Made by a program: the position numbers and the translations under genes. This document shows, one piece after another, positions 1,128-24,730 of a DNA stretch of 28,657 bases. The notes beneath the pieces are model-generated. The model made no database searches, was not told the DNA's origin, and saw nothing but the letters and a program-made list of their open reading frames with translations. The first letter of the stretch is position 1, and each line of letters starts with the position of its first letter. The stretch lies in sequence record OR992647.1. The stretch is one strand, 5' to 3'. This DNA comes from Escherichia phage ST-T-K.

Positions 1128-1362
1128 AGTATTCGCATTCGTATTGATGATTATGCTCGGCGCGCTGGGCTTTATCCTGCATTGCGTGCAGGGCGTGTTA
1201 ATGGCGGCCTGGATGATTCGCCATCCGTCCCGCTGGCTGGACGACGGATATAGCGACGTCGCCGTCGACTGGGTTGCGAAGCACATCGACCGCCCGCCGT
1301 TAAGCTGGATCGAGAACGCCACCAACTACGTGACACGAAATCTTTTTAATAAAAGTGCTTGA
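1120..1362 (+). CDS. small membrane protein (one N-terminal TM helix), unknown function
   Basis: ATG at 1120 overlaps the upstream stop by 8 nt; GAGGA at 1107-1111. Hydrophobic segment FAFVLMIMLGALGFILHCVQGVLMAAWMI. Confidence 0.45.
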   Translation: MNKVFAFVLMIMLGALGFILHCVQGVLMAAWMIRHPSRWLDDGYSDVAVDWVAKHIDRPPLSWIENATNYVTRNLFNKSA

Positions 1363-1387
1363 CCGCTTAGACGCAACCAAGTAAATT
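1359..1387 (+). promoter_or_regulatory. candidate sigma70-type early promoter (TTGACC-17-TAAATT) overlapping two GCAACCAAG direct repeats
   Basis: TTGACC at 1359-1364, 17-nt spacer, TAAATT at 1382-1387. GCAACCAAG at 1373-1381 and 1389-1397, which is the reverse complement of the TTGGTTGC element seen at other early intergenic sites. Confidence 0.35.
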
Positions 1388-1451
1388 AGCAACCAAGCCG
1401 AACGGGGTGGCTAACAATAACCCCGATACATGCGAAATGAGGAATTTGAAA

Positions 1452-2240
1452 ATGGCTAAAGTCAACCTGAAAAATGTACGTGTATGCTTCCTGAAAATTT
1501 GGGAACGTGATACTCCTAAACAGGATGGACAAAAACCGGCATACCGTGCCGTGATTCTTCTTGATAAAGAAGATCCGCAGGTGGACAAAGTGGAAGCGGC
1601 AGCGCGCGCAGTGCTTACCGACAAGCTGAAATCCGAGAAGAACGCCGATAAGTGGATGGACCGCCACTACGCCCAGGATTCTAAGGAATGCGCGGTTCGT
1701 GACGGTGACGAGCGCGACGAAGTAACCGAAGAGTTTGAAGGCATGTTGTATATCAACGCCAAATCGTTCAAACAGCCTAACATCCAAACGTCACTGGGCG
1801 AGAAGCAGACCGAACAGGGTCTGACTATCGACGGCGACGAGATCGAAGGCCAGGAAATCTATTCCGGTTGTTATTGCAACGTGTCCCTGGATATTTGGGC
1901 GTGGAACAACACCAACGGCAAAGGCCTCGGTGCCGGTTTGATGGGTCTTCGCTTCCGCGACGACGGTGATTCCTTCGGTGGCGGCGGATCTTCTTGCTCC
2001 GACGATGACCTGGGTGACGATGACGAAGATGAAGCACCGCGCAAGTCTAAGAAGTCCAAACGTCGTGACGACGAAGACGAAGACGACAAGCCGCGCAAGT
2101 CCAAGAAATCCAAGCGCCGCGATGACGACGACGAAGACGAGGAAGATGAGAAACCTCGCAAGCGTCGTAAGTCCCGCGATGACGAAGATGAGGACGAAGA
2201 CGACGAAGACGAAGCACCACGTAAACGTCGCCGCCGTTAA
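1452..2240 (+). CDS. ssDNA-binding protein, T7 gp2.5-like (DUF2815-like) with repetitive acidic/basic C-terminal tail
   Basis: ATG at 1452 with GAGGAA at 1439-1444 (7-nt spacer); the ORF track's upstream GTG at 1407 lacks an RBS. Architecture resembles gp2.5-type SSBs (N-terminal MAKVNLKNVRV, glycine-rich segment, charged tail). Sits between nuclease and polymerase. Confidence 0.6.
   Translation: MAKVNLKNVRVCFLKIWERDTPKQDGQKPAYRAVILLDKEDPQVDKVEAAARAVLTDKLKSEKNADKWMDRHYAQDSKECAVRDGDERDEVTEEFEGMLYINAKSFKQPNIQTSLGEKQTEQGLTIDGDEIEGQEIYSGCYCNVSLDIWAWNNTNGKGLGAGLMGLRFRDDGDSFGGGGSSCSDDDLGDDDEDEAPRKSKKSKRRDDEDEDDKPRKSKKSKRRDDDDEDEEDEKPRKRRKSRDDEDEDEDDEDEAPRKRRRR
2001..2237 (+). repeat. in-frame imperfect tandem repeats encoding alternating poly-Asp/Glu and PRKSKKSKRR blocks
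   Basis: Translation shows DDDEDEAPRKSKKSKRRDDEDEDDKPRKSKKSKRRDDDDEDEEDEKPRKRRKSRDDEDEDEDDEDEAPRKRRRR; the underlying DNA shows repeated gacgaagacga / ccgcgcaagtccaag units. Confidence 0.7.
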
Positions 2241-2258
2241 GGGCAAAGCCCACTATTC

Positions 2259-2285
2259 AAGCCCGCTTAATGCGGGCTTTTTATT
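2259..2285 (+). terminator. rho-independent terminator after SSB gene
   Basis: Stem GCCCGC (2261-2266) / GCGGGC (2272-2277), loop TTAAT, then TTTTTATT. Confidence 0.7.
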
Positions 2286-2298
2286 AGGACAATGAAAA

Positions 2299-2469
2299 AT
2301 GCGTATTAAAGCCAGTGAAGTAAAAGTCGGAATGCGTGTGTGGTCCAAATTGCTGGGCGAGTATTTTACCGTTGCCGAGATTCGCAACAACGGCGAAGAG
2401 ATTGCCCTTTCCGACGGTATCTTCTCCATGATCGGCAGCGCTGACGCCGTAGTGAGGATAAAGCAATGA
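2299..2469 (+). CDS. small hypothetical protein (56 aa), translationally coupled to DNA polymerase
   Basis: Not in the ORF track (under 60 aa). ATG at 2299 with AGGA at 2286-2289; translates MRIKASEVKVGMRVWSKLLGEYFTVAEIRNNGEEIALSDGIFSMIGSADAVVRIKQ; TGA at 2467-2469 overlaps the polymerase ATG at 2466 (ATGA). Confidence 0.4.
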   Translation: MRIKASEVKVGMRVWSKLLGEYFTVAEIRNNGEEIALSDGIFSMIGSADAVVRIKQ

Positions 2470-4757
2470 AAGACTTAGAACGCCTATTTCTCGACACCGA
2501 GACGTTTAGCGGGGTGGACCTGAAGAAAGCAGGTGCGTATGCCTACGCGGAACACCCCACCACCGAGATTATGATTTGCACCTACGCCATCGACGAGGGC
2601 CGCGTGCAGACATGGGACGCCACTGAATCCCCAACAATGCCGCGTGAACTGCGCAAGGCGCTCCGCCGCGTATCCCGCAAGAAAGCAAAAATAGTGATGG
2701 CTAACGGCCTCCTGTTTGACCGCCTGGTTATCCGTGAAAAGTGGGGTATCGACCTGCCGGTAAGCCAGATCGAAGATACTATGATTATGGCCTTCCGACA
2801 CGCGCTGCCGGGTAGCCTCGATATGCAATGCCAGGTGCTGGGCGTTGACGCAGAGCACGCGAAGGATAAGGCGGGCAAGGCGCTGATCAAACGGTTCTGT
2901 AAGCCTACCCCTAAGACCTACAAAATCCGCCGCTACACCCGCGACACACACCCTGAAGAATGGGCTAAATTCCTGCGCTATGCCGCGCTGGATATTATCG
3001 CAATGCGTGAAGTCTACTGGCGCATACCGGACTGGGGTAACACGCCGAAGGAAGACGAAATCCTGCTTATTGACCAGTTGATTAACGACCGTGGCTTCTA
3101 TGTGGACGTTGACCTGGCTAACGCCGCGATCAAGGCGGTGCAGGTGCATAAAGAGGAATTGAAGGAAGAAGCCTGGGAACTGTTCGGCGGTAAGCTGACC
3201 GGCAATGACTTCCTGCCAATCCTGCGTGATATTGCCCCGGCGTTCACAATTCACAACGCGCAGAAATCCACGCTGAATGACTTGCTGGAAGATCCAGACT
3301 TCCCCGACGAGGGCAAAGTGCTTATTGAGATGCGCCTCGGTGCGTCATCAACGGCATCGACTAAATACAATCCGCTCGTAAACGGTCTTTCTGCCGATGG
3401 TCGCCGCCGTGGTTGTCTTCAGTATGGTGGGGCAAAGCGCACACTACGCTGGGCTGGTAAAGGCTTTCAACCTCAAAACCTGGCACGTGGCGAGTACAGT
3501 GATGACCACGAAGGGAAGATTAAGCGCCGCGAAGGTGAGAGCGACGTCTCGTTTTGGGTACGGTCGCACATGCTCACCAACGGCATCAACTCCCTGTTAC
3601 GCGGGACCGCGCACTGGGCGTATGACATATCGAAGCTGACCGCCTCGACCGTTCGCGGGTGCATTATCCCGGCTAAGGGCAAGAAGTTTGTCGTAGCGGA
3701 CTACTCCAACGTGGAAGGGCGCGGCCTTGCCTGGATCGCAGGCGAGAAAACCGCATTAATGGTGTTTAAGGCCGGACGCGATATCTATTGTGAAACTGCC
3801 GGTAAGATGTTCGGCCTCGACCCGGACTACATTAAAGCCAACCGCAAAGACTTGCGCCAGATTGGTAAGGCGTGTGAATTGGGGCTGGGCTATGGTGGCG
3901 GCGTTGCTGCGTTCTTGCAATTCGCTAAAAACCTGGGCCTCGACCTGTACGCAATGGCTGACGTCATGAAGGGTACATTCCCGGATCACATTTGGGCGGC
4001 GGCGAAGCGAGGCTATGAGTTTGCCCGCATCAACGAAGCGAAGCGACCGCCGAAGCCGGGCAAGAAAGACGAGCGCCCAACCTACATACTGCCTAAAAAT
4101 GTATGGTTGACCTGTGACGCGATTAAACGCATGTGGCGTGAGTCTCACCCGAAGACCGTAGATTTTTGGTCCGAGCTTGAGCACGCGGTGTTAAACGCAA
4201 TACGCAATCCGGGTAAGGCATACTGGGCTGGCGCGAACGTTCGCCCGGATGGTAAGAAAGCGCTCAAAATTGTTCGCACGAAGGCGAAGCATGACCCAAC
4301 CTTCGACGAGGAGCGCGACGACCCGAACGCGGCGGGCTGGTGGCTGAAGGTTGAGTTGCCGTCCGGGCGAATCATGAGCTACCCCGGCATCGCGTTGTCT
4401 GTCACTACCGAGATTGACGAAGACACCGGCAAGAAGCGCACCAGCACTCGCATAAAATACCAGGGCGAGAATCAGACTACGCGCCAGTGGGGATTCCAGT
4501 ACACCTACGGCGGCAAACTGACGGAGAACATCGTACAGGCGTTGTGCCGCGATATCCTCGCATGGTCCATGCCTGGTGTCGAAGCTGCGGGCTATGAAAT
4601 CGTCCTGTCAGTGCATGATGAATTGATCACCGAAGTGCCAGACACAGACGACTACACGACCGAGGAGCTATGCGCGCTGATGTGCGACCTGCCGATATGG
4701 GCGAACGGTTTCCCACTTGCCGCCGAAGGCGACATTATGTACCGGTACAGGAAGTAA
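2466..4757 (+). CDS. DNA polymerase, family A (Pol I-like) with N-terminal 3'-5' exonuclease domain
   Basis: 763 aa. N-terminal Exo I motif DTETFSG; polymerase motif B RQIGKACELGLGYGGG; motif C LSVHDELITEV. Confidence 0.9.
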   Translation: MKDLERLFLDTETFSGVDLKKAGAYAYAEHPTTEIMICTYAIDEGRVQTWDATESPTMPRELRKALRRVSRKKAKIVMANGLLFDRLVIREKWGIDLPVSQIEDTMIMAFRHALPGSLDMQCQVLGVDAEHAKDKAGKALIKRFCKPTPKTYKIRRYTRDTHPEEWAKFLRYAALDIIAMREVYWRIPDWGNTPKEDEILLIDQLINDRGFYVDVDLANAAIKAVQVHKEELKEEAWELFGGKLTGNDFLPILRDIAPAFTIHNAQKSTLNDLLEDPDFPDEGKVLIEMRLGASSTASTKYNPLVNGLSADGRRRGCLQYGGAKRTLRWAGKGFQPQNLARGEYSDDHEGKIKRREGESDVSFWVRSHMLTNGINSLLRGTAHWAYDISKLTASTVRGCIIPAKGKKFVVADYSNVEGRGLAWIAGEKTALMVFKAGRDIYCETAGKMFGLDPDYIKANRKDLRQIGKACELGLGYGGGVAAFLQFAKNLGLDLYAMADVMKGTFPDHIWAAAKRGYEFARINEAKRPPKPGKKDERPTYILPKNVWLTCDAIKRMWRESHPKTVDFWSELEHAVLNAIRNPGKAYWAGANVRPDGKKALKIVRTKAKHDPTFDEERDDPNAAGWWLKVELPSGRIMSYPGIALSVTTEIDEDTGKKRTSTRIKYQGENQTTRQWGFQYTYGGKLTENIVQALCRDILAWSMPGVEAAGYEIVLSVHDELITEVPDTDDYTTEELCALMCDLPIWANGFPLAAEGDIMYRYRK

Positions 4758-4761
4758 TATT

Positions 4762-4953
4762 ATGAAAGCAGAATTAAGCATAATGCGCGCTGGCGCGACG
4801 GACGATGACGAGATTCGAATCGTCCTTAGACTGGAACGTGGCAAGACCATAACGGCGCTTGTCTCGCCTGAAAACCTGGCGCTGGCGCTAACCGGTCGGT
4901 CTGACATACCGGTAGACCTCCGTCTGCGTAACGTGGAGTTGCAAACCAAATGA
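4762..4953 (+). CDS. hypothetical protein (63 aa)
   Basis: ATG at 4762, 4 nt after the polymerase stop; ends in ATGA overlap with the next gene at 4950. The track's longer version starts inside the polymerase gene. Confidence 0.45.
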   Translation: MKAELSIMRAGATDDDEIRIVLRLERGKTITALVSPENLALALTGRSDIPVDLRLRNVELQTK

Positions 4954-5228
4954 CTCCAGAAGGCAAGATACAAAGTCACCTGATGAAGCTGGTTAAAGCC
5001 GTTGGCGGATTCTGCCGTAAGGTGATATGGGAGGGGCGCTCAGGTGCGCCCGACCTGATTATTATCATAAACGGCAGAGTAGTATTCGTCGAAGTGAAGC
5101 GCCCCGGCGGAAAACCGAAGCCGCACCAGGTGCGAGAACATGAGCGAATGGCCCGCCGCGGTGCTGACGTTCGTGTTATAGACACCATAGCCGACTGTGA
5201 TTTATTGGTTGCTGAATTGGTCGCGTAG
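4950..5228 (+). CDS. VRR-NUC domain nuclease (PD-(D/E)XK)
   Basis: 92 aa; motif GAPDLIIIINGRVVFVEVKRPGG carries the PD...(E)VK signature; C-terminal HQVREHE is typical of VRR-NUC. Confidence 0.8.
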   Translation: MTPEGKIQSHLMKLVKAVGGFCRKVIWEGRSGAPDLIIIINGRVVFVEVKRPGGKPKPHQVREHERMARRGADVRVIDTIADCDLLVAELVA

Positions 5229-5237
5229 CGGTATAGT
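5205..5237 (+). promoter_or_regulatory. candidate early promoter with paired TTGGTTGC / TTGGTCGC elements
   Basis: TTGGTTGC at 5205-5212 and TTGGTCGC at 5217-5224; -35-like TTGCTG at 5209-5214, 17-nt spacer, TATAGT at 5232-5237; precedes the ATG at 5269. Lies within the 3' end of the VRR-NUC gene. Confidence 0.4.
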
Positions 5238-5268
5238 GTGCCGGTTAGCCCTATCGAGGATTTTAGAA

Positions 5269-5442
5269 ATGATTGAAGAAAAACGTTGTAGTAATTGCGG
5301 CTGTATCAAGCCGCTATCCCAGTTCCACAAATACACCGGGAAGACCGCGCGAAGTCCGGACGGGCATCGGGCCGAGTGCAAATCGTGCCGCAATAAGAAA
5401 GAGCGTGAACGGCAGCGCCGCTACCGCGCAGAACAAGAATAA
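5269..5442 (+). CDS. zinc-ribbon protein with basic C-terminus (candidate DNA-binding regulator)
   Basis: ATG at 5269 with GAGGA at 5256-5260; CSNCGC ... CKSCRNKKERERQRRYR gives a C-x2-C ... C-x2-C arrangement plus Arg/Lys-rich tail. Confidence 0.55.
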   Translation: MIEEKRCSNCGCIKPLSQFHKYTGKTARSPDGHRAECKSCRNKKERERQRRYRAEQE

Positions 5443-5449
5443 TCAATAC

Positions 5450-5472
5450 GGCGGGCTTGTCCCGCCCTTTTT
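5450..5472 (+). terminator. rho-independent terminator
   Basis: Stem GGCGGG (5450-5455) / CCCGCC (5461-5466), loop CTTGT, then C plus TTTTT (5468-5472). Confidence 0.65.
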
Positions 5473-5484
5473 GGAGACATGACG

Positions 5485-5703
5485 ATGAAAGAACATTACC
5501 GACTCACCAAGCTGGGCGAGTGCAAACCAGGTGATCGCGTGTGGTTTATTGCGGGCATGAATCACCCGCTGCCGCTGACAGTGTGCTGGCAGAAGTTTAA
5601 GAGCTTCCGCTCGACCGGTGTGCACATCGGACACGCCACCAACTACGACGCCACAAAGAGGAACTGGAACTGTGAAACCGAAGTCTGGAAAAAGGCGGAA
5701 TAA
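5485..5703 (+). CDS. hypothetical protein (72 aa)
   Basis: ATG at 5485 with GGAGA at 5473-5477 (7-nt spacer); stop TAA at 5701-5703, 4 nt before the helicase start. Confidence 0.5.
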   Translation: MKEHYRLTKLGECKPGDRVWFIAGMNHPLPLTVCWQKFKSFRSTGVHIGHATNYDATKRNWNCETEVWKKAE

Positions 5704-5707
5704 AGAG

Positions 5708-7132
5708 ATGGCAAGATTCCGACGTCGCGAATACCAGAAGTTGATAACCGCGTTTATTCTCAAGCACGAACGTTGCAATATTTGGGCGACAATGGGATCC
5801 GGTAAAACCGGCGCGACTATGTGGGCGCTCAACAAAATGTTCCAGACTGGCATCCTATCCAACCAGGAGGACCGCGTACTGGTGCTGGCCCCGCTGCGCG
5901 TTGCGTCGGGTACGTGGCCCCCGGAACAAGAAAAATGGAGATTCCCCGCCCTGCTGGTGGTAGACGGCACCGGGCCGGAGAAGGACCGCATTGCAGCGCT
6001 TGAAAGCGACGCTAACGTGGTTTGTGTTAACTACGATGTGGTTGAGTGGCTTGTAGAGTATTGCGGCGACGAGTGGCCTTTTACGGTCGTTGTTGCCGAT
6101 GAATCCACTAAGCTGAAAGGCTACCGCAGTAAGCAGGGCAGTAAGCGCGCACGCGCACTGGCGGCGATTGCACATAAGCACGTCAAGCGCTGGATCAACC
6201 TGACCGGCACGCCAGCACCAAACGGACTGAAAGACCTATGGGGTCAGACGTGGTTTGTCGACGGTGGCGAACGCCTCGGCAGTAGCTATCAGGCATTCAC
6301 CGACCGCTGGTTTATTAGCAAGCCTGTTAAGCCAGGCAGCTTCACTATGCAGCACGCCCCGCTCAAGAACTCCGAGAAGGAGATCCAACAACGCCTGTCA
6401 GACGTGTCGCTTACCGTTGATGCGGCTGAATACTTCGGATGTGACAAGCCAATCTATACGCCGGTTGTTGTGGACCTGCCGAAGAAAGCCCGCAGGATTT
6501 ACGACCAGTTCGAGAGCGAGCTATTTGCCGAACTGGAAAGCGGAACAGTGGAAGCGGCGAACGCTGCGGCGAAGACCATCAAGTGCCTCCAGCTTGCTTC
6601 CGGGGCCGTGTATAAGGTGGACGAGGACGGCGAACGGACCGACGAGTGGGAGAAGATTCACGACGCCAAGCTGGACGCGCTGGAAAGTATAGTAGAGGAG
6701 TTGAACGGCGCGCCGTTGCTCGTTGCGTATCAGTACAAGCACGACCTGGCACGTCTGAAGAAGAAATTTCCCCACGGCGTTGCGATGGGTAAGGGTAAGC
6801 AGGGTAATAAGGATATGGAAGCGTGGAACAGGGGCGAGATTCCCATCATGTTCGCACACCCAGCATCAGCGGGTCACGGCCTCAACTTGCAGGACGGAGG
6901 TCATCACCTGGCTATCTTCTCAGATACGTGGAACTATGAGCACTTTGCGCAGATCGTGGAGCGTATCGGGCCGGTCCGCCAGATGCAAGCCGGACACCCT
7001 CGACCGGTATTCGTCTATATTATCCAGGCACGCGGAACACTGGACGAACTGGTGGCCGACCGCCGCGACGGTAAGCGCGATATCCAGGACGATTTGATGG
7101 AATATATGAAAGCTAAGAAGGTGCGCAAGTGA
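5708..7132 (+). CDS. SNF2/DEAD-like superfamily 2 helicase
   Basis: Walker A MGSGKTG; motif II VVVADESTKL; C-terminal helicase region HPASAGHGLNLQDGGHHLAIFSDTWN. Start ATG at 5708 chosen over the track's upstream start, which overlaps the previous gene. Confidence 0.85.
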   Translation: MARFRRREYQKLITAFILKHERCNIWATMGSGKTGATMWALNKMFQTGILSNQEDRVLVLAPLRVASGTWPPEQEKWRFPALLVVDGTGPEKDRIAALESDANVVCVNYDVVEWLVEYCGDEWPFTVVVADESTKLKGYRSKQGSKRARALAAIAHKHVKRWINLTGTPAPNGLKDLWGQTWFVDGGERLGSSYQAFTDRWFISKPVKPGSFTMQHAPLKNSEKEIQQRLSDVSLTVDAAEYFGCDKPIYTPVVVDLPKKARRIYDQFESELFAELESGTVEAANAAAKTIKCLQLASGAVYKVDEDGERTDEWEKIHDAKLDALESIVEELNGAPLLVAYQYKHDLARLKKKFPHGVAMGKGKQGNKDMEAWNRGEIPIMFAHPASAGHGLNLQDGGHHLAIFSDTWNYEHFAQIVERIGPVRQMQAGHPRPVFVYIIQARGTLDELVADRRDGKRDIQDDLMEYMKAKKVRK

Positions 7133-7824
7133 TTATCTGGTCATTATTCGACGGCAGCGGCTTGATGATAGAGCGTGCTGCCGAGATGGGGCATAAGTGC
7201 TACTGTTTCAACTACTCCGAAGCCGATCACGGGTCTTACCTGGACTACCGGATTTATGGGCGCGGTATCCGCTATCGTAATGAGTTTATCGATCTGGACT
7301 TCGTGGACCGAGCTATGAATGGCGATTTCGGCACGCCGGATATTATCTACGCGTTTCCGCCGTGCACGGATCTAGCGGTTAGCGGTGCGCCAGCTTTCCC
7401 GCGCAAGCGTGCGAACGACCCAGCCTTTCAGCTTAAGGCCGTGCGCACCGCGAAGATTGCCGCTTACCTGGGTGACTTCTTTGAAGTGCCATATATGATT
7501 GAAAATCCGCGCAGTGTGCTATCCACCCAGTGGCGCAAGCCCAACCACTCGTTTGATCCGTGGGAGTACGGCGGATATCTGCCGGTGGATGACGTGCATC
7601 CGTTGTTCCCGGAATACATCAACGACCGCGATTCATATCCAAAGCTGACCTGTTTATGGACTGGCAACGGCTTTCGTATGCCAGAGAAAAAGCCGGTATT
7701 CGTTGAAAAAGGGTACTCGAAGCAGTATAGTCGCCTCGGTGGCAAATCTGCCCGCACCAAATTAATCCGGTCGCTCACTCCGCGCGGCTTCGCAATAGCA
7801 GTCAATGAGGAAAATTTAAAATGA
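7129..7824 (+). CDS. C5-cytosine methyltransferase-like protein, minimal (no recognisable target-recognition domain)
   Basis: GTG at 7129 overlaps the helicase stop (GTGA). Motif I-like LFDGSG, motif IV-like FPPCTDL (Pro-Cys), motif VI-like IENP. Only 231 aa. Confidence 0.55.
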   Translation: MIIWSLFDGSGLMIERAAEMGHKCYCFNYSEADHGSYLDYRIYGRGIRYRNEFIDLDFVDRAMNGDFGTPDIIYAFPPCTDLAVSGAPAFPRKRANDPAFQLKAVRTAKIAAYLGDFFEVPYMIENPRSVLSTQWRKPNHSFDPWEYGGYLPVDDVHPLFPEYINDRDSYPKLTCLWTGNGFRMPEKKPVFVEKGYSKQYSRLGGKSARTKLIRSLTPRGFAIAVNEENLK

Positions 7825-8144
7825 ATACTACATTCGAAGCCATCGACTTCTCGGTCGCAATGACTAACCAGTTATTCACCTACGACAGTAAGACCGGCGT
7901 CATCCGTCTGAAGTCCACCGGCTGCAAGATTGGCAACCTCAACACTGCCGATGGCGGCACGCGTATCGAATGCAACGGCAAGACGCTGTCTGGCGCGCGC
8001 GTGGCGTGGATTATTGAGACTGGCAATACAATCCCTCCCGGCTTCGCCGTTGTGTGTCGCCAGCGCACGCCAGGACACTACGGCAACCGCATGAGCAACC
8101 TGTATTTGGTAGACGTAGCGCGCGACCCGAATTTTTATGAATAA
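7821..8144 (+). CDS. hypothetical protein, weak resemblance to a degenerate HNH_3-type domain
   Basis: ATG at 7821 overlaps the upstream stop (ATGA). Segment ARVAWIIETGN ... GHYGNRMSNLYLV loosely resembles HNH_3 domains, but the catalytic His-Asn-His pattern is not intact. Confidence 0.4.
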   Translation: MNTTFEAIDFSVAMTNQLFTYDSKTGVIRLKSTGCKIGNLNTADGGTRIECNGKTLSGARVAWIIETGNTIPPGFAVVCRQRTPGHYGNRMSNLYLVDVARDPNFYE

Positions 8145-8145
8145 A

Positions 8146-8178
8146 TTGGTTGCGTAATTAGGTTGGTTGCATTATCTT
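8146..8178 (+). promoter_or_regulatory. paired TTGGTTGC elements with promoter-like hexamers
   Basis: TTGGTTGC at 8146-8153 and 8163-8170 (17 bp apart), followed by ATTATCTT; possible -35 TTGCGT (8150-8155) and -10 TATCTT (8173-8178). Confidence 0.4.
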
Positions 8179-8180
8179 AA

Positions 8181-8206
8181 GGGTGTCCGGTTGGACGCCC
8201 TTTTTA
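8181..8206 (+). terminator. terminator-like hairpin with T-tract immediately upstream of an RBS
   Basis: Stem GGGTGTCC (8181-8188) / GGACGCCC (8193-8200) with one G-U pair, loop GGTT, then TTTTTAAT. Confidence 0.55.
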
Positions 8207-8224
8207 ATACCTGGAGACATTACG

Positions 8225-8689
8225 ATGAAAATTTTACAAGAAGAGAAAAATTACTGGGCTGCGCAATGCCTCGAAGCCCGCGAACAGGCCGAACGCGCGA
8301 ACGCGCTGGCGGATACATACCTGGCGAGCTACGAAGGAGAGGAGAAGGTGCGCAAGGAGCTAGAGGAGCGCTTCGAACTACTTTTCGAACTGATGGGGAT
8401 TATGCAGCGCACCGGATACACAACCAGCGTTGCGCTAAACCGCGTAACTGCCGACGCCCTGCGTGAGCACTGCAAACGTGCCGAGGAGTACGTGCGTCCT
8501 ATGGGCCGCCGGACTTCGATCCCCCGTAAAGACCTGGTGCTGATAGCGTGGCGCAATACAATAAACGGCAATTATTACTCCGATAATCGCCCGCTTAGCG
8601 CCGAGGAAGCAAAGCGCGTGCAACGCGTCATCGGTAAAGGCGATAAGGTTCCACTATACGCGTTAGACACCGACCATGACGGAGAATGA
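8225..8689 (+). CDS. hypothetical protein (154 aa)
   Basis: ATG at 8225 with GGAGA at 8213-8217 (7-nt spacer); the leader is near-identical to that of the 5485 gene; 3' end overlaps the Dam start by 14 nt. Confidence 0.55.
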   Translation: MKILQEEKNYWAAQCLEAREQAERANALADTYLASYEGEEKVRKELEERFELLFELMGIMQRTGYTTSVALNRVTADALREHCKRAEEYVRPMGRRTSIPRKDLVLIAWRNTINGNYYSDNRPLSAEEAKRVQRVIGKGDKVPLYALDTDHDGE

Positions 8690-9161
8690 GCAGAAGGATA
8701 GCTGGCGCACGCCGCCAGCTTTATTTAAACCGCTGCGCCGCAAGTACCGATTCCGTTACGATATGGCGGCAAGCGACACCAATCACCTGCTACCGCGCTA
8801 CTTCACGGCAGAGCATAGCGCGCTTGATGCGGACTGGTCAGAGTTGAAAGGGTGGAAGTGGTGCAATCCGCCGTACTCCGATCCGCTGCCGTGGGTCGAG
8901 TGCGCTGCGCACGGACGCCGTACTGTCATGCTACTGAATCAGGACACGTCAACGAAGTGGGCGAAGCTGGCCCGGAAGACTGCCAATATGATAATTCTTC
9001 TGGACTGGCGTGTGCGATTCACCCATGCTGTGACCGGCGAAGTTGGGCCGAGCAATAACAAGTGCCAGCAATTGATAATATTTGATGAAGCGCCGCCCAT
9101 CGGCAGCGCACAAATTGAAATAATGAGCGAGAGAGAACTACATGAATATCTTAATCGTTGA
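8676..9161 (+). CDS. DNA N6-adenine methyltransferase, phage Dam type
   Basis: 161 aa with catalytic motif WCNPPYSD (NPPY); size and layout match the small phage Dam family. Confidence 0.8.
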   Translation: MTENEQKDSWRTPPALFKPLRRKYRFRYDMAASDTNHLLPRYFTAEHSALDADWSELKGWKWCNPPYSDPLPWVECAAHGRRTVMLLNQDTSTKWAKLARKTANMIILLDWRVRFTHAVTGEVGPSNNKCQQLIIFDEAPPIGSAQIEIMSERELHEYLNR

Positions 9162-9366
9162 CCGCGACCCCGCGGTAGTAGACCAAATGCAAAGGGACTA
9201 TAACATTGACCCGCGCCGCGACCGTGTGGTGCGCGTATCCCGACCAGAATCCATAATGAGCCTGGACCTTACCGGTTGGCTTGTCATAACCAAGCGTTGC
9301 CATTTCGTATGCAACTCCGTTACTGCGCGAAGCGCCCGTCACACCCTTATTGAGAGCTTAAAATGA
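9142..9366 (+). CDS. hypothetical protein (74 aa), coupled between Dam and the HAD phosphatase
   Basis: ATG at 9142 with GAGAGA upstream; overlaps the Dam 3' end by 20 nt and ends in an ATGA overlap with the next gene at 9363. Confidence 0.4.
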   Translation: MNILIVDRDPAVVDQMQRDYNIDPRRDRVVRVSRPESIMSLDLTGWLVITKRCHFVCNSVTARSARHTLIESLK

Positions 9367-9833
9367 AACTACTGATTTGTGATCTGGATGGCGTTATTAA
9401 TGGTTCAAGTGATGCGCGTGCTGACCTGGTGCCCGGCATAAAAACCAAATCAACCTTTTGGGCGAAGTGGCACAAAGCACACGTACGCGAAGACCTTAAC
9501 ATGGATATGCTGCCGCTGCTGCGCATGTACAAAGCGCAAGGCTTCGAGATAGCGTATCTGACTAACCGGCAGCGCGAATGCTGGGACACGACCGCCAAGC
9601 AATTGGAAGTATTCCCGACGGGCCGGTTGTTCATGCGCCACATGCTGGATGACACCCCACCGCCGGAATTTAAGGCGTGCGCTGTGTTCCAAATGGTTTG
9701 CTATGCGGACGTGTCAGAACTGGTCATCATTGAAGACTGCCCGAAGAATATCGAAGCCATCCGTCGCGCGTGCGGCGATCTGGTCCCGAAAATTTATGCT
9801 ATAAACGTCGCTAAATTCACTTGCAACCAATAG
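9363..9833 (+). CDS. HAD-superfamily phosphatase (possible 5'(3')-deoxyribonucleotidase-like)
   Basis: N-terminal LICDLDGVI fits the HAD DxDG(T/V) nucleophile motif; 156 aa. Confidence 0.6.
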   Translation: MKLLICDLDGVINGSSDARADLVPGIKTKSTFWAKWHKAHVREDLNMDMLPLLRMYKAQGFEIAYLTNRQRECWDTTAKQLEVFPTGRLFMRHMLDDTPPPEFKACAVFQMVCYADVSELVIIEDCPKNIEAIRRACGDLVPKIYAINVAKFTCNQ

Positions 9834-9849
9834 TTGGTCGCATTATAGT
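9821..9849 (+). promoter_or_regulatory. candidate early promoter with inverted TTGCAACCAA / TTGGTCGC elements
   Basis: TTGCAACCAA at 9821-9830 and TTGGTCGC at 9834-9841 form an imperfect inverted repeat; -35 TTGCAA (9821-9826), 17-nt spacer, -10 TATAGT (9844-9849). Confidence 0.45.
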
Positions 9850-9894
9850 TAACTCGTTGGGGGCAATCCGGCCCCCACTAAAAGGAAAAACATC

Positions 9895-10488
9895 ATGAAA
9901 GCATTTGAATACTGCAAGAACGCCGCCACCACTATGGAACAGCGCGGGAAAGAAAACGGCTATGACAACGCGAAAGAAGAACGCAGCGCTAAACAGATCG
10001 CTGCCGTGTTTAACGCGCTTACCGGTCGCGACCTGACCGAGCAAGAAGCCTGGACCTTCCTGATCTGCCTGAAGCTGGTGCGCCAGCACCGTAAGCACCA
10101 GGAAGACAATATTGTTGATCTGGTTGCGTATTCCGCCTTGCTGGGCGAGTCTTACATGACCGTGCATGACGAGATTCAGGTCGATACAACGGCAGCGCAA
10201 TTCGACAGCCTCAAGGGTTGGCCTATCAAGACCAGCGGCGCGTTCAAGCCTTCGGACCTGTCCGTGCGCCTTGACGGCGAGATTAATGCGTATAACAGCG
10301 CAATGCGCGTTGCCGGGGATACGGTGGCCTCGTTCGGAAAGACTGTTAAAGCTGCCAATTTCGGTGTGGCAGATCAAGAAGTACAGCCTATGGTAGTGCT
10401 CACTGGCGAGGATGGGTCCAAAATCCTCATGACGCCGGAAGACTTCCGCAACATGGAAAAAACACTGGTGACTAGCGCACTTAAATAA
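9895..10488 (+). CDS. hypothetical protein (197 aa)
   Basis: ATG at 9895 preceded by AAAGGAAAAA; no motif recognised with confidence. Confidence 0.6.
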   Translation: MKAFEYCKNAATTMEQRGKENGYDNAKEERSAKQIAAVFNALTGRDLTEQEAWTFLICLKLVRQHRKHQEDNIVDLVAYSALLGESYMTVHDEIQVDTTAAQFDSLKGWPIKTSGAFKPSDLSVRLDGEINAYNSAMRVAGDTVASFGKTVKAANFGVADQEVQPMVVLTGEDGSKILMTPEDFRNMEKTLVTSALK

Positions 10489-10530
10489 TTCTAATAGCGG
10501 GCTTCGGCCCGCAGCAATGAGGGCTTCACA

Positions 10531-11106
10531 ATGTACGGCGAATACGAAATAACCGGTAAACAATTCCACATAGCGGCAATGTTGGCGAGCGTCGAGTTTG
10601 ACCAGTGGCGATTAAAGTCTGACGCGTGCAAGCAAAGCCGACTTGTCGGTGTGCTGGGCGAGATGTTTGCGGGCATGTACCTTGAAGGGCAGGCAGGCGG
10701 GCGTAGTTGTATCCCGCAAGGCTTGCTTATGCGTACCGGCCTGTTTAGCGCCAATACTATCGACCGCGGCGATATTATCATGGTCGGTAAACGCAAGGTT
10801 AAGTCCGGCCCCGACTTCCGTGAGCACATGATTGATGCCGTCTGGACCTACGAGGTCAAAGCCACCAGCGGCATCCGTCGCGGACTGGTAGAGGCGCGTT
10901 GCGCTCGCGAGTATCTCACCCGTCGAGTTGCCGGTGTTATCCTGGTGGGCGTATCGTTCGGGCAACATAGCGCACACGGCGTGATTGAGGATATCGCGGA
11001 ACCATACGTGATTGTCAACGACTGGCCGTTGGTGGAAGTAGAAGGTAAGGAGTATTACGAAAGTCCGCTGGTGCGGCGCAAAATGGACTGGGAAAACTCA
11101 AACTAA
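10531..11106 (+). CDS. hypothetical protein (191 aa), possible PD-(D/E)XK-like core
   Basis: ATG at 10531 with GAGGG at 10518-10522; GDIIMVG ... WTYEVKA gives a D ... E-x-K pattern (weak). Confidence 0.55.
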   Translation: MYGEYEITGKQFHIAAMLASVEFDQWRLKSDACKQSRLVGVLGEMFAGMYLEGQAGGRSCIPQGLLMRTGLFSANTIDRGDIIMVGKRKVKSGPDFREHMIDAVWTYEVKATSGIRRGLVEARCAREYLTRRVAGVILVGVSFGQHSAHGVIEDIAEPYVIVNDWPLVEVEGKEYYESPLVRRKMDWENSN

Positions 11107-11130
11107 AAAAGGGGCCGCGTGGCCCCTTCT
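11105..11130. terminator. bidirectional terminator between convergent early and late transcription
   Basis: AAAAAA (11105-11110), stem GGGGCC (11111-11116) / GGCCCC (11121-11126), loop GCGT, then TTCT. Lies between the plus-strand stop at 11106 and the minus-strand stop at 11133. Confidence 0.7.
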
Positions 11131-11132
11131 CA

Positions 11133-12659
11133 TTACTTACCTTCCAGCTTTTCTACTTTCTGCAACAGGTGAACGAAGGCAGCACACAGGTCCATCAACA
11201 GCACGTTACTGTCAAGCGACAGCACATCGTCGGTGTATCCGATCTCCTTTTGCTCGACAATCTCGTTCCCTTCCTCGTCCACGCCAACAACAACGTCCTC
11301 GTAGATTCCATGCCCTGGCAGCAAGTGCACATATTCTGGATCAATCATGGCCAGGTCCTGCGCGATAAGGCCGTAACGCTGTACGTCCGACTCCTTATAC
11401 TTAAACATTGCTGGTAGCCATTGCCGCACTCGGTTGTAACTTTCCGCGCCGTCCGTGTATTGGATTTCTTTCTTCACGTCCCGGTCTGATAGCGGTGCTT
11501 TCTGAAACTCCGACGACGATGGGTTGCCGCTGTTACCCTGAATCAGACGCCCATCCGGCAGGAAGCGGAATAGCGCCTCAGTTTCCCCATTCTTCCACGC
11601 GTGGATCCGGTAGTCTGAAATATGAGTGTCACCGGCACGAACAAGGCCCGCGCGCGCCCAGTCAGCGTACCACTTGTACATTATTTGCCCGACCCAATTG
11701 TCGATGCCCATCGAGGCGTTTGATAGAATTAAGCCGTTAGCCTCCACGTCATTGAATGTTAATGATTCGCCACCGTTCAGGCGTAATGTTGCGTGTTTAA
11801 CGTTACTGTCATCGCCCACCCCCAAAATGTTGCGCGCGGCGTACTTGTCGGCAACGTCCGCTAGGTTCTGCGACTTCTGCATGAACTTAGTGGGGTCGAT
11901 TGCGTTTTTGAAGTCCTCCGCTTCGTCGCGGTATCCTTGCGCTGCATCGCGGGCCGCTTGTGCGTCAGTCTTCGCCGTGTTGGCCTGATCTCGAATAGCG
12001 CCAGTGTCAGTCTTAATTTGATTAGTCTGGTCCTTGATGGACTGCGTATCTGTCTTAATCTGGTCGGTTTGCGTCTTGATCGTATTGGTGGCGTCGTGGA
12101 TTGCCTGCGTATCGGTCTTAATCTGGTCGGTTTGCGTCTTGATCGTATTAGTATCGTTCTTGAAGCCTTCGGCCTCGTCGCGGTATCCTTTCGCTGCGAC
12201 CTCAGATGCGGAGGCTTGTTGTTGCAGGTTGCGCATTTCCACCGGGTCGATCTGCTTCATTAGCTGCGACAGGTAGCCCCATGACATACCCTGCATTACT
12301 GTGCCGTTCGGTAACGTAACTGTGATTTCTTCAGCGTCGCCGAAGATTGCACGCCAGTTGTTCTCGTCCGCAATAAGCATACGCAGTGCTTTCTGTGCCT
12401 GGACTGTTACGCCCATCGTTGCCAGCGACATGGTATCGCGCGCAACGCCATCCCATGCAAGGCCGGATGCCGTCGGGCCGTCAAACGGCAGCACCAAAGT
12501 AAGCCCGGTGTTGCTTTCGATAGATTCGATCGCGATAGTGTAGGGGACTTGCCCCACTACGACAGAAAGGAAATCACCGGCTTTGAACGCCGAAAACGTC
12601 GTACCGGTCCCCGTTACCGACCGGCTGTTATTGGTTAATAAGATAGTACCCGCTGCCAT
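11133..12659 (-). CDS. tail fiber protein with heptad repeats and C-terminal intramolecular chaperone (peptidase S74) domain
   Basis: 508 aa. Central repeats IKTQTDQ / IKTDTQA (~10 heptads) flanked by YRDEAEGFKN and YRDEAEDFKN, reminiscent of T7 gp17-type fibers. C-terminus SDRDVKKEIQY ... YGLIAQDLAMIDPEYV ... LLQKVEKLEGK matches the endosialidase-chaperone autoprocessing domain. RBS AAGAGGA before ATG. Confidence 0.85.
   Translation of the reverse strand: MAAGTILLTNNSRSVTGTGTTFSAFKAGDFLSVVVGQVPYTIAIESIESNTGLTLVLPFDGPTASGLAWDGVARDTMSLATMGVTVQAQKALRMLIADENNWRAIFGDAEEITVTLPNGTVMQGMSWGYLSQLMKQIDPVEMRNLQQQASASEVAAKGYRDEAEGFKNDTNTIKTQTDQIKTDTQAIHDATNTIKTQTDQIKTDTQSIKDQTNQIKTDTGAIRDQANTAKTDAQAARDAAQGYRDEAEDFKNAIDPTKFMQKSQNLADVADKYAARNILGVGDDSNVKHATLRLNGGESLTFNDVEANGLILSNASMGIDNWVGQIMYKWYADWARAGLVRAGDTHISDYRIHAWKNGETEALFRFLPDGRLIQGNSGNPSSSEFQKAPLSDRDVKKEIQYTDGAESYNRVRQWLPAMFKYKESDVQRYGLIAQDLAMIDPEYVHLLPGHGIYEDVVVGVDEEGNEIVEQKEIGYTDDVLSLDSNVLLMDLCAAFVHLLQKVEKLEGK
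12042..12149 (-). repeat. in-frame tandem repeat within the tail fiber gene
   Basis: 45-bp unit ctgcgtatc(t/g)gtcttaatctggtcggtttgcgtcttgatcgtatt at 12042-12086 and 12105-12149 (one mismatch, 63-bp period), within a run of related heptad-coding units. Confidence 0.65.
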
Positions 12660-12677
12660 AGCTGAATCCTCTTAAAA

Positions 12678-12710
12678 TTGGTTGCATTCTTGATTGAGCG
12701 GTGCAATACT
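12678..12710 (+). promoter_or_regulatory. candidate promoter of the moron (TTGGTTGC element, extended -10)
   Basis: TTGGTTGC at 12678-12685; -35 TTGCAT (12682-12687), 17-nt spacer, TG at 12702-12703, -10 AATACT (12705-12710). Lies in the divergent region between the fiber start and the lipoprotein gene. Confidence 0.4.
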
Positions 12711-12740
12711 AAAACTCAACCAAATATAGGAGATGATAAC

Positions 12741-12962
12741 ATGAAAACTTTAATTATGATTTGTGCGGTCCTTTTGTCCGGTTGTGCTGTAGAACGCAAC
12801 AACGGCGATTGCATTACGGTTGCTTACGGTAGCTGCATGTTACGCTACATTGACGGGCAAAAAGTCCCTGCCGGTGATGTGGACATGCGCTTCACTGGTC
12901 TGTCTGCCGATAGCGACGGCAATTTTTCCGGTACAGTATCAGTTAAATCACGGGAGTGGTAA
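12741..12962 (+). CDS. small lipoprotein, candidate Cor/Llp-like superinfection-exclusion protein
   Basis: ATG at 12741 with AGGAG at 12728-12732; MKTLIMICAVLLSGC has a lipobox (LLSGC) following a signal peptide; 73 aa; sits next to the receptor-binding tail genes. Confidence 0.6.
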   Translation: MKTLIMICAVLLSGCAVERNNGDCITVAYGSCMLRYIDGQKVPAGDVDMRFTGLSADSDGNFSGTVSVKSREW

Positions 12963-12964
12963 TA

Positions 12965-13930
12965 ATGGGCGCTGGAATACTCATCGACTACAACGACGGA
13001 CGACCGATTATGGAGATAACTGCCGGTTTGCGCGCTCCGTCATACTGCACTACGTTTGACCAGCGCTGCCAGTCCGACAAGACGCTGACCATTAATACCC
13101 CGCTAACCCCAGGGTCGGATCTTGTCGTTGCGCTCACGCGCCCGGTAGAAGTGCTTGAGGTGTTCGACCAGACGCTGGTTCTCCCCGACCCGTTCTACGT
13201 GACGTCGGTACAGCGCAACGGGGATAGTGGAATTATCCTTCGAGGCGCGGACGCGCATAACGCATACAGCGGCCTCCCGCAATGGGCGGGTATAATTATG
13301 GAAGTGCTGCCGGTGGGGTCACGCAATGCGGGCTTACTGGTGGCGAACTCGACAGACTTCACCGCGATTTCCAACGTGTCCCGGTTAATGACCTGCCGCT
13401 ACGCGCAGCGCGTGCACGTGAACGGTAGTATGCCTTTGCCTGTGGGCGGTATCCCGTTCGCGCGCTGGGATAATGGCAACGTATCGGTAGGCTTCGATGG
13501 TAGTAGTATCATCGTCCGCAATTCGTCTTATGGCGGGATTGATGACGTCGGGGCCGAAGTGGACTTGGATCTGGTTATCTTCAACAATACGCCGCCATCA
13601 CCGGGGACTGGTATCACCATGACGAACAACCAGGGGCAGGTCACGTTCTCGACCGTTAACAAGCCGTTTGTGCTCAATTCGGTAATTAATATCGGCACCG
13701 GCGGTCAGAATATCGGCAATAGCCTCGTACAGCTTTCATATACCGGCGCGCTCATTGAGAACAACAGCGGCTACAACCACGTTCGAATGAACGGGATACG
13801 CATGGCGGGTAACGTGGTTAGTGCGGCGCGTAATCGCGTAATCGGTAACTACTCACGGCAGCAATTCCAGATGCCTGACCGCAACATAACCGTCCCAACC
13901 CCGTTACTCGTCATACCTAACATGTATTAA
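12965..13930 (+). CDS. hypothetical Gly/Asn/Ser/Val-rich protein (321 aa), co-transcribed with the lipoprotein
   Basis: ATG at 12965 with GGGAG at 12952-12956, 2 nt after the lipoprotein stop; composition suggests a beta-rich fiber-like or surface protein; followed by a terminator. Confidence 0.55.
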   Translation: MGAGILIDYNDGRPIMEITAGLRAPSYCTTFDQRCQSDKTLTINTPLTPGSDLVVALTRPVEVLEVFDQTLVLPDPFYVTSVQRNGDSGIILRGADAHNAYSGLPQWAGIIMEVLPVGSRNAGLLVANSTDFTAISNVSRLMTCRYAQRVHVNGSMPLPVGGIPFARWDNGNVSVGFDGSSIIVRNSSYGGIDDVGAEVDLDLVIFNNTPPSPGTGITMTNNQGQVTFSTVNKPFVLNSVINIGTGGQNIGNSLVQLSYTGALIENNSGYNHVRMNGIRMAGNVVSAARNRVIGNYSRQQFQMPDRNITVPTPLLVIPNMY

Positions 13931-18017: not shown

Positions 18018-18748
18018 TCTGTAATATCCCCAGGTAAGTCTTTATGACGTACCCATTTAACCACATTGTCGCGGAAAAATCCTGCCCGGAAGGGGACCAC
18101 GCTCGACAGGCTGCCGTAGATATGGTGCAGTAGTTGGTTGCCCGGAAGGAAGATCCCAGCATGGTTAGGCACTGGCGCGCTAATCTGCATGATGACCATC
18201 GCCCCCGGTGTATTCTCCTCGCACTCCCGGAACCCCGCATCATACCAGTTATCCATGTACAGGCTTTCGCCCATTTCCCACCAGTTATACGGCACGCGGA
18301 AGTCAGGAAGAATCACGCCCTGCTTTTTGTGCCAGTCCATGACGAGGCCATAGCAATCCGTAATTCCGAGAACAAATCGGCGACCTACCAGCGGCGGGTC
18401 TTCCGGGTCGATCTCGATAAAGTCGCCATACTCATTGGTGATGGTCCACACAATGCCGCTGCCGTTGCATCCGTTAACGTCCCCCAATGACGGGGTTAGA
18501 TCCCTCTGTCCGGGATGTGAGTGGACTACGCGCACGACGTCGCCAATATCCTCGGCGTCCATCCATGCCATATCACTAATGGTAAACGCGTCCTTACGCG
18601 AGCGCGCGCCGGTCGGGTCTTCGAACACGTTCATGCACGGGACGAATACTTGTTTGCGGCCCACCATGACGACCAGGCCGCAGGCTTCTTCAGGCAGACA
18701 TGCCGCAACGTGTGCGGCGATATCGCTCTTAACCTTCTTCGTTAACAT
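18008..18748 (-). CDS. tail assembly protein, lambda gpK-like (JAB/MPN plus NlpC/P60 domains)
   Basis: JAMM-like EEACGLVV ... VHSHPGQRDLTPSLGD; NlpC/P60-like DCYGLV and HAGIFL; 246 aa. Confidence 0.85.
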   Translation of the reverse strand: MLTKKVKSDIAAHVAACLPEEACGLVVMVGRKQVFVPCMNVFEDPTGARSRKDAFTISDMAWMDAEDIGDVVRVVHSHPGQRDLTPSLGDVNGCNGSGIVWTITNEYGDFIEIDPEDPPLVGRRFVLGITDCYGLVMDWHKKQGVILPDFRVPYNWWEMGESLYMDNWYDAGFRECEENTPGAMVIMQISAPVPNHAGIFLPGNQLLHHIYGSLSSVVPFRAGFFRDNVVKWVRHKDLPGDITEWQ

Positions 18749-22815: not shown

Positions 22816-22890
22816 TATGCAGTCCCCTTTTTTATGCAGTTGCCGATTGACATTGTATCAGCGAATTTGAAACAAACCTTATTCAGTCTC

Positions 22891-22918
22891 AGACGAGGGG
22901 GGCCGTTAACCCCCGTCT
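22891..22918 (-). other. GC-rich hairpin without U-tract upstream of the tape measure gene
   Basis: Left arm agacg-a-ggggg (22891-22900) pairs with right arm cccccgtct (22910-22918), with one bulged A. Confidence 0.4.
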
Positions 22919-22936
22919 AGTCTGAAAGACTGGGAG

Positions 22937-23196: not shown

Positions 23197-23198
23197 CA

Positions 23199-23891: not shown

Positions 23892-23914
23892 AAAAAAGGG
23901 GCCGTTCTGGCCCC
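23892..23914 (-). terminator. rho-independent terminator after the major tail protein gene
   Basis: On the minus strand, stem GGGGCC / GGCCCC (23898-23914) followed by TTTTTT (23897-23892), immediately before the G RBS. Confidence 0.7.
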
Positions 23915-23944
23915 ATATTAACACTCGCTATTTAAGCGACCAAA

Positions 23945-24670: not shown

Positions 24671-24730
24671 AATGAAGCTCCTGTTTAGATATACGGATTA
24701 ATGATACAGCACGCGCAGAATTGCGCCAAA

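Follow-up and report, generated by a model that had tools for sequence, protein, structure and literature searches.

The window analysed here, a stretch of 28,657 nucleotides (nt) from Escherichia phage ST-T-K (sequence record OR992647.1), carries repeated copies of the 8-mer TTGGT(T/C)GC, and it is this motif, its association with predicted promoters and its possible role as an operator that are considered below. Over its first 12 kb the window matches about 140 complete Dhillonvirus genomes (HK578, SSL-2009a and SO-1 type) at 88-95% identity; these are siphophages of E. coli, Shigella and Sodalis, with vB_EcoS-101114BS4 as the nearest relative (94.6% identity). Among the E. coli siphophages in collections made for therapy or for the study of defence systems (BASEL, for example), Dhillonviruses belong to the commonest. 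Judged from annotated relatives, the left part of the window is a replication and DNA-metabolism module, which encodes an exonuclease, a gp2.5-like single-stranded DNA-binding protein, a DNA polymerase, a VRR-NUC protein, a zinc-ribbon protein and a helicase, together with two methyltransferases, an HNH protein, a ligase-like protein and a kinase-like protein; a tail fibre gene, a lipoprotein and membrane-protein gene pair and the tail and head genes follow (Table 1).

Exact matches to TTGGTYGC (Y being T or C) number 11 in the window, compared with 2.63 ± 1.42 in 100 dinucleotide-preserving shuffles, none of which reached 11. The word is also far from equally frequent in coding sequence, where equal frequency would have spoken against its proposed role: intergenic DNA makes up 5.2% of the window and wholly contains seven of the 11 copies (binomial P = 3e-7). 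A further three fall within the final 25 nt of a gene, two of them in the VRR-NUC gene, which stops at 5228, and the third in the gene that stops at 9833. Four pairs of copies are no more than 40 base pairs (bp) apart, where 0.15 would be expected from 11 random sites, and the spacings within pairs range from 9 to 35 bp in direct and inverted arrangements. Since variants with one mismatch stay at chance level (56 versus 55.8 expected), the word appears to be sharply defined, and its context adds one base on each side to give A-TTGGT(T/c)GC-a. In two complete relatives ATTGGTTGC is the most over-represented 9-mer of all (15 versus 0.43 and 13 versus 0.41 expected), and complete Dhillonvirus genomes hold 22-24 exact copies of the motif, clustered at about 12 promoter-like regions. 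Among these are, beyond the window, the divergent early control region and the non-coding stretch that follows the helicase-primase gene.

A preliminary description of the sequence had listed nine copies at five sites, four of these being intergenic and one lying in the 3' end of the VRR-NUC gene, each upstream of a plus-strand gene. We found exact matches at all of these positions and the gene contexts as described; the accompanying statement that the late-gene region is free of the motif, however, has to be withdrawn, since exact copies are present at 23936-23943 on the minus strand, in promoter context, and at 18134-18141 on the plus strand. The latter copy lies in a minus-strand tail gene and probably represents chance, and the former defines a sixth site, which occupies a 54-nt gap after the major tail gene.

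A generic promoter scan of the window gave no enrichment (10 hits versus 10.2 expected from shuffles) and detected two of the six sites, most being missed because a -35 of the form TTGCnn, with only three or four of six matching positions, falls below the threshold. We therefore used a weighted scan of -35/-10 pairs, by which scored pairs were found at six of the seven motif-bearing regions of the window and at most of the clusters in relatives. The six predicted promoters of the window score 6.3-12.9 bits, have a 17-bp spacer each and lie 37-65 nt before a co-oriented start codon (Table 1). Transcript starts 6-8 nt past each -10 would be expected near 1394, 5244, 8185, 9856 and 12717 and, for the minus-strand site, near 23908. 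A TTGC-based -35 located 17 bp from the -10, as had been proposed for four sites, is confirmed for sites 2, 3, 4 and 5, and site 1 uses a separate TTGACC. Altogether, 10 of the 11 copies fall within the footprint of a polymerase (-40 to +15), seven in forward and three in reverse orientation. Site 5 is perhaps a pair as well, since its one-mismatch partner is conserved in relatives, and this partner may act as a weak second site.

Table 1. Motif copies, predicted promoters, hairpins and gene blocks (window positions unless another genome is named; promoter scores in bits).
Feature	Position	Strand	Score or stability	Remarks
Motif copy, site 1	1373..1380	-		GCAACCAA on the plus strand; in spacer of promoter 1, 1 nt short of the -10
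Motif copy, site 1	1389..1396	-		over predicted start of promoter 1
Predicted promoter 1	1359..1387	+	12.9	TTGACC-17-TAAATT; before gene for single-stranded DNA-binding protein (ATG 1452)
Hairpin of the 5' leader	1403..1425	+	weak, z = -0.9	downstream of promoter 1
Motif copy, site 2	5205..5212	+		fused to -35 of promoter 2 (TTGC opens the hexamer); in VRR-NUC 3' end
Motif copy, site 2	5217..5224	+		TTGGTCGC; in spacer of promoter 2
Predicted promoter 2	5209..5237	+	9.9	TTGCTG-17-TATAGT; before zinc-ribbon gene (ATG 5269)
Motif copy, site 3	8146..8153	+		fused to -35 of promoter 3
Motif copy, site 3	8163..8170	+		in spacer of promoter 3, 2 nt short of the -10
Predicted promoter 3	8150..8178	+	7.8	TTGCGT-17-TATCTT; before gene at 8225
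Terminator-type hairpin and T-run	8179..8205	+	-16.9 kcal/mol, z = -3.2	directly after -10 of promoter 3
Motif copy, site 4	9823..9830	-		reverse; overlaps -35 of promoter 4; inverted pair with 9834-9841
Motif copy, site 4	9834..9841	+		in spacer of promoter 4, 2 nt short of the -10
Predicted promoter 4	9821..9849	+	11.2	TTGCAA-17-TATAGT; before DUF6378 gene (ATG 9895)
Leader hairpin	9858..9877	+	-14.9 kcal/mol, z = -2.3	without T-run
Motif copy, site 5	12678..12685	+		fused to -35 of promoter 5
Predicted promoter 5	12682..12710	+	6.3	TTGCAT-17-AATACT, TG at extended -10; before lipoprotein gene (ATG 12741)
One-mismatch copy	12716..12723	-		TCAACCAA on the plus strand; just past promoter 5; conserved in L001-L003
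Motif copy outside promoters	18134..18141	+	best promoter score 0.8	inside minus-strand tail gene
Motif copy, site 6	23936..23943	-		TTGGTC acts as predicted -35; conserved in L001-L003
Predicted promoter 6	23915..23943	-	8.0	TTGGTC-17-TAATAT; before tail chaperone gene (ATG 23875)
Predicted intrinsic terminator	23892..23914	-	z = -2.4	GGGGCC-AGAAC-GGCCCC and T6; adjoins -10 of promoter 6
Replication/DNA-metabolism module	1 to ~11100	+		from comparison with annotated relatives
Tail fibre gene	11133-12659	-		from comparison with annotated relatives
Lipoprotein and membrane-protein gene pair	12741-13930	+		from comparison with annotated relatives
Tail and head genes	beyond 13930	-		from comparison with annotated relatives
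Tape-measure gene	20173-22815
Gene for 109-amino-acid helix-turn-helix protein	L002 40634-40963			immediately upstream of helicase-primase gene

The motif is better conserved than its surroundings. In six aligned orthologous regions, 91% of the motif columns are invariant, compared with 66% of the other intergenic columns (Fisher P = 1.3e-6). At site 1, the copy at 1373-1380 is invariant in 16 unique orthologous sequences, including that of the divergent lineage L020, and the copy at 1389-1396 is kept in all Dhillonviruses and degenerate in L020. At site 3, the sequence between the copies differs (GTAATTAGG, ATAATCATA, ATAAGCATA) while both copies remain invariant. Four divergent lineages recovered from metagenomes (L020, L023, L024 and L025), whose polymerase and helicase genes are 68-75% identical, carry 11-17 exact copies per 10-20 kb, with exact copies at the orthologous sites 1-3 and unchanged pair spacings; at site 2, both the 12-bp spacing and the C variant are retained in L020, L023 and L025. 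In the -10 hexamers, the key positions T1, A2 and T6 are fixed and the middle positions drift among relatives, as seen from TAAATT, TAGATT, TACATT and TACTGT at site 1 (TAnnnT kept), TATAGT, TATGAT and TATATT at site 2 and TATCTT, TATATT, TAACTT and TAATAT at site 3. Such drift is what would be expected of working sigma-70 promoters.

In the sister group Guernseyvirinae, represented here by Kagunavirus Bas74 (E. coli) and Jerseyvirus wksl3 (Salmonella), which have the replication module in common with Dhillonvirus at a polymerase identity of about 65%, the motif occurs at chance level (three copies in each genome). Because it is conserved in Dhillonvirus and at chance level in Guernseyvirinae, the motif is best seen as a trait of one phage lineage and not of the host transcription machinery. 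When IMG/VR was scanned for motif pairs, the hits were mostly chance matches in unrelated contigs; a literature search with the 8-mer itself retrieved primers only, and no description of the motif turned up in the searchable literature on Dhillonvirus, HK578, SSL-2009a or SO-1.

The question arises whether the motif is part of the promoters themselves or a site laid over them. In the window and in four other genomes, the copies fall into several classes when their starts are measured from the first base of the best -10. Forward copies at -27 (14 cases, with -26 and -28 included) supply with their TTGC the first bases of the -35; other forward copies lie in the spacer at -15 to -10 or, at +4, overlap the end of the -10. 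Reverse copies are found at -10/-9, where they end 1-2 nt short of the -10, at -19 to -16, where they are fused to a TTGAC-type -35 and read TTGACGCAACCAA, and at +6, +7 and +15, over the start site or the early leader. Contact by the polymerase itself would show one position and one orientation. Since within the polymerase footprint the position varies and the orientation is mixed, we favour an operator over a core-promoter element and, since the motif is confined to one phage lineage, a regulator of the phage over one of the host.

The two possibilities that had been put forward previously, namely an early promoter architecture specific to the phage or an operator to which a phage or host regulator binds, have thus fared differently in their parts. 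The association with promoters stands on the evidence of hexamers, spacing, orientation and the constraint on the -10; the restriction to early genes is not quite accurate, as the site at 23936 precedes tail genes. The mixed position and orientation are better accommodated by an operator, as a function that we infer, with a phage regulator as the favoured partner and a host regulator disfavoured by the chance-level counts in the sister phages.

With regard to the identity of such a regulator, we scanned 10 small or unassigned proteins of the window and 10 early-region proteins of its closest relative against Pfam and PHROGs and obtained one DNA-binding match, to a 109-amino-acid protein that matches HTH_23, HTH_28 and Sigma70_r4_2 at residues 65-105 and is referred to below as the helix-turn-helix (HTH) protein. 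Its gene is preceded by a predicted promoter near consensus (TTGACA-17-TAGTTT), and homologues were found in this phage group only. Residues 47-106, which include the recognition helix, are invariant in 20 aligned sequences, and the first 45 residues are hypervariable; this lineage-specific N-terminus (homologues P0001-P0026) suggests diversifying pressure, such as a host partner or a defence sensor could exert. An AlphaFold (AF2) model with a predicted local distance difference test score of 83 consists of a short helix, a 55-residue helix and a C-terminal tri-helical HTH, for which fold and sequence searches of the PDB brought up nothing beyond generic HTH matches (DeoR, IstA, resolvase and LuxR; E about 1) and hence no assignment to a specific family. 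Every lineage examined has both the motif and the HTH protein, the latter at identities down to 43%. Furthermore, L020, L023 and L024 carry an exact GCAACCAA between the promoter and the start codon of the HTH gene, and the Dhillonviruses proper carry the two-mismatch variant TAACCAAT at the same place. An operator between the promoter and the start codon of a regulator is the usual signature of autoregulation, and the copy ahead of the HTH gene suggests that such control may operate here. In the Guernseyvirinae a different small HTH gene, annotated as excisionase and transcriptional regulator, lies one to two genes upstream of the helicase-primase gene. The zinc-ribbon protein (5269-5442), which the preliminary description had named as a candidate binder, has similarity to Lar and endonuclease VII zinc ribbons only and no match to a DNA-recognition domain, and we consider the HTH protein the better candidate.

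From our point of view, and with moderate confidence, the copies of A-TTGGT(T/C)GC represent asymmetric operators for a phage-encoded regulator, probably the HTH protein, with a mainly repressive effect; the binding of a protein to the motif, the identity of this protein and repression as the outcome are all what we infer from sequence. As such, an operator word would be built into host-type (sigma-70) promoters of the non-late Dhillonvirus transcription units, and a phage-encoded regulator would bind every copy. With copies placed between about -40 and +15, occupancy would exclude or trap RNA polymerase, and as the regulator accumulates from its near-consensus early promoter, the motif-bearing promoters would be turned down. 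The net effect would be a Cro-like global shut-off with autoregulation. For site 3 (8140-8180), we propose TTCCTTGC as a mutant form of TTGGTTGC.

Several points weigh against this interpretation. The HTH gene lies about 3 kb past the left end of the window and hence outside it, and the link between protein and motif is one of co-occurrence and gene position. In L025, the 43%-identical homologue has the recognition helix STIKNWIYRK instead of STVRSWVRN, and the motif is unchanged, so that no co-variation ties the protein to the motif. Although a coiled-coil is suggested by the model, the pair spacings and their direct and inverted arrangements agree with no single dimer geometry, and an activator would also be compatible with the fixed -27 position at 14 promoters with only TTGCnn as -35. 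The binder may be another small phage protein whose fold is unknown, and no mapping of Dhillonvirus promoters or transcript starts was found in the searchable literature.

The promoters have to be viewed together with the hairpins that follow four of the six (sites 1, 3, 4 and 6), with T-runs at sites 3 and 6. At these two sites the -10 abuts the hairpin, so that the predicted start sits in the 5' arm or the loop; for promoter 3 it lies within the 5' arm of the 8179-8205 hairpin, the pairing of which is kept in L020 through three compensatory double changes. At the place of the 1403-1425 hairpin, L020 has a hairpin of unlike sequence. An Rfam scan of the window gave no match. Judging from this geometry, the hairpins would insulate the units from one another: transcripts from upstream would stop at the terminators of sites 3 and 6, locally initiated ones, which would lack the hairpin, would continue, and each unit would consequently depend on its own motif-bearing promoter.

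The edges of these cassettes also mark differences between relatives. In Bas83, an extra gene for an 80-amino-acid protein is inserted exactly after the site-3 cassette (window junction 8225; L001 26905-27148), and in L017 and L019 unrelated sequence extends up to the A/T tract ahead of promoter 1 (window 1300-1345). Insertion and replacement junctions between relatives thus coincide exactly with cassette edges, which recalls the shuffling mediated by promoter-early stem-loops (PeSLs) in T4-type phages.

At site 5, a gap of 81 bp (12660-12740) separates two divergent genes, the tail fibre gene on the minus strand (start at 12659) and the lipoprotein gene on the plus strand. Inspection of this gap by eye for a minus-strand promoter of the tail fibre gene showed a TAGTAT that nearly coincides with the plus-strand -10, and no -35 was found. 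A late-type promoter without the motif, TTGGCG-17-TATCAT (24701-24729, minus strand), precedes the major tail gene, and in L002 another one, TTGGTG-17-TATAAT (3520-3560), precedes the small terminase gene. Both have their -35 within a hairpin, in L002 a terminator, and hence represent a second kind of terminator/promoter overlap.

One could speculate that the motif serves two opposite purposes, such that one asymmetric 9-bp operator and one HTH protein run nearly the whole non-late programme of a virulent siphophage. The HTH protein would then turn off the strong TTGAC-type early promoters, which carry a reversed copy in the spacer or at +1, and turn on or license the TTGC-type internal promoters, which carry a forward copy at -27, and promoters placed ahead of terminator hairpins would insulate the units and make expression rely on local re-initiation. 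We entertain this idea only tentatively; if true, regulator and operator would form a set for use in E. coli that is compact, orthogonal and portable.

A related explanation, which we regard as unlikely, starts from activation. Here, a phage protein bound at -27 would replace the weak TTGCnn -35 and recruit the host polymerase to a middle class of promoters, in the manner of T4 MotA boxes and lambda CII sites, and the same protein would repress the TTGAC-type early promoters with their reversed copy in the spacer. This would account for the forward copies at -26 to -28 that supply the first four bases of the -35, for the weaker -35 and lower scores of the -27 class (6-11, versus 12-14 for the TTGAC type) and for the systematic difference in orientation between the two classes. 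However, most of the -27 promoters have another copy that lies within the spacer (-15 to -10) or covers part of the -10 (+4), which are rare positions for an activator, and a TTGCnn hexamer with a good or extended -10 should function with sigma-70 alone. By direct reading, the arrangement TTGC-N6-TTGC is absent, TTGC tetrads being at least 13 bp apart or absent, and the Pfam and PHROG scans of about 20 proteins showed no MotA-like or CII-like domain, with the qualification that AsiA-like proteins were not specifically sought. Arrangements of the sigma-54, lambda CII and MotA types were rejected from direct reading of the spacings.

That the phage has adopted the site of a host transcription factor such as CytR seems very improbable to us. 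The octamer preferred by CytR, GTTGCATT, overlaps the motif and is contained in the two copies at 8166 and 12681. It occurs, however, in only two of the 10 promoter copies, the invariant TTGG falls outside the octamer, the tolerated T-to-C change breaks the CytR core and no CRP-like TGTGA-N6-TCACA with up to two mismatches exists within 80 bp of any copy, so that CytR/CRP was rejected on the sequence pattern. The chance-level counts in the sister phages of E. coli or Salmonella speak against a host factor as well.

Just as little probability is assigned to the motif being a PeSL-like linker for the exchange of modules, for which no dedicated binding protein would be needed. Four of the six sites are cassettes of promoter and stem-loop, two junctions coincide with such cassettes (the Bas83 insertion at site 3 and the L017/L019 replacement upstream of site 1), and PeSLs are composite terminator/promoter motifs at indel junctions (PMC4122927, PMC2839356). 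The cassettes have, however, only 8-9 bases and the hexamers in common, which is too short for efficient homologous exchange, and recognition by a protein is the better explanation for why these bases are strictly invariant in either orientation. The roles of linker and operator are not mutually exclusive.

Least probable of all is that the motif represents replication-origin iterons for the HTH protein or a helicase-primase initiator, with the promoter copies as a secondary effect: although five to seven copies occur in the non-coding region B of about 500 bp just after the helicase-primase gene in relatives, the HTH gene abuts that gene and regions A and B are repeat regions according to the annotation of the SO-1 record, the core common to both regions is built from another word, GCGGGACA, of which region A (about 22880-23200) holds at least eight copies together with zero of TTGGTTGC, the TTGGTTGC copies of region B flank the GCGGGACA core in promoter-like contexts, and the copies in the window are singles or pairs set precisely in promoters across 22 kb.

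The GCGGGACA array deserves a description of its own. Between the tape-measure and tail chaperone genes (22880-23200, read on the minus strand), GCGGGACA(A) and TTGTCCCGC form a dense array with eight exact copies, all intergenic, alongside long inverted repeats and repeats of TGCATA(A/C). The array has a homologous counterpart after the helicase-primase gene (L002 43320-43530), and the SO-1 record gives the labels A and B to these two repeat regions. The array may be an origin or another cis-acting site. A further family, ACGGCAGC/GCTGCCGT with the relatives ACGGCAAC and CGCTGCCG, is strongly over-represented, with 31 copies in L002 (versus about 3 expected) and 15-22 in the window. Every ACGGCAGC and ACGGCAAC copy of the window is coding; each of the three frames is represented, and the sense strand predominates (for ACGGCAGC, 11 of 15 copies).

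Returning to the operator interpretation, the motif would be a new example of ordinary phage control, in which a lineage-specific regulator acts on sites in promoters. It yields a map of about 12 predicted promoters per genome, six of them within the window, and supplies one named candidate regulator together with a possible explanation for the co-ordination of the replication, exclusion and tail-chaperone units. If confirmed, the pair of protein and operator could serve as a small orthogonal repressor for the engineering of E. coli and as a handle for conditional phage mutants.

Among known systems, the C1 protein of phage P1 (283 amino acids, operator of 17 bp, ATTGCTCTAATAAATTT) belongs to a temperate phage and maintains lysogeny. 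The Dhillonvirus motif resembles its operators, by analogy, in being an asymmetric word dispersed over the genome as singles or pairs in either orientation, at the promoters of many operons and in the region of the regulator itself; Dhillonviruses, however, are virulent, and C1 has no detected similarity to the HTH protein. With lambda Cro and CI, the proposed regulator would have in common that an early-made HTH protein shuts down early promoters, as well as its own, by binding within them, whereas lambdoid operators are 17-bp palindromes in two control regions and the sites described here are asymmetric 9-mers at about 12 promoters. MotA boxes of phage T4 have a fixed position (about -30) and one orientation and need AsiA. 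The likeness to them lies in a 9-bp phage word that replaces or overlaps the -35 with the sigma-70 -10 kept and in a small phage DNA-binding protein as the putative partner, and the difference in the orientation, of which both kinds occur here, and in the range of positions (-28 to +15). A homologue of MotA or AsiA was not found among the approximately 20 small proteins scanned with Pfam and PHROGs, no dedicated motA/asiA search having been made.

Stoperators lie in a single orientation relative to transcription. According to one report (PMC9283540), the repressor of Cluster A mycobacteriophages recognises asymmetric sites across the genome, and these stoperators terminate transcription elongation; the numerous dispersed sites of an asymmetric recognition word are a trait that the Dhillonvirus motif would appear to share. 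It differs in that 10 of 11 copies sit in promoter footprints, seven forward and three reverse, and hosts, proteins and motifs are unrelated. PeSLs (PMC2839356, PMC4122927) likewise place a host-type early promoter and a stem-loop between genes, some of them at insertion or replacement junctions, but are longer, near-identical repeats with a presumed action through recombination, whereas here only the 9-bp word and the hexamers recur and the stem-loops are unrelated. Overall, the Dhillonvirus system is not a member of the P1 C1, Cluster A or PeSL systems by homology and departs from the specific features that define each of them. As analogues, the P1 C1 operators and the Cluster A repressor sites appear to come closest in function and the PeSL cassettes in architecture.

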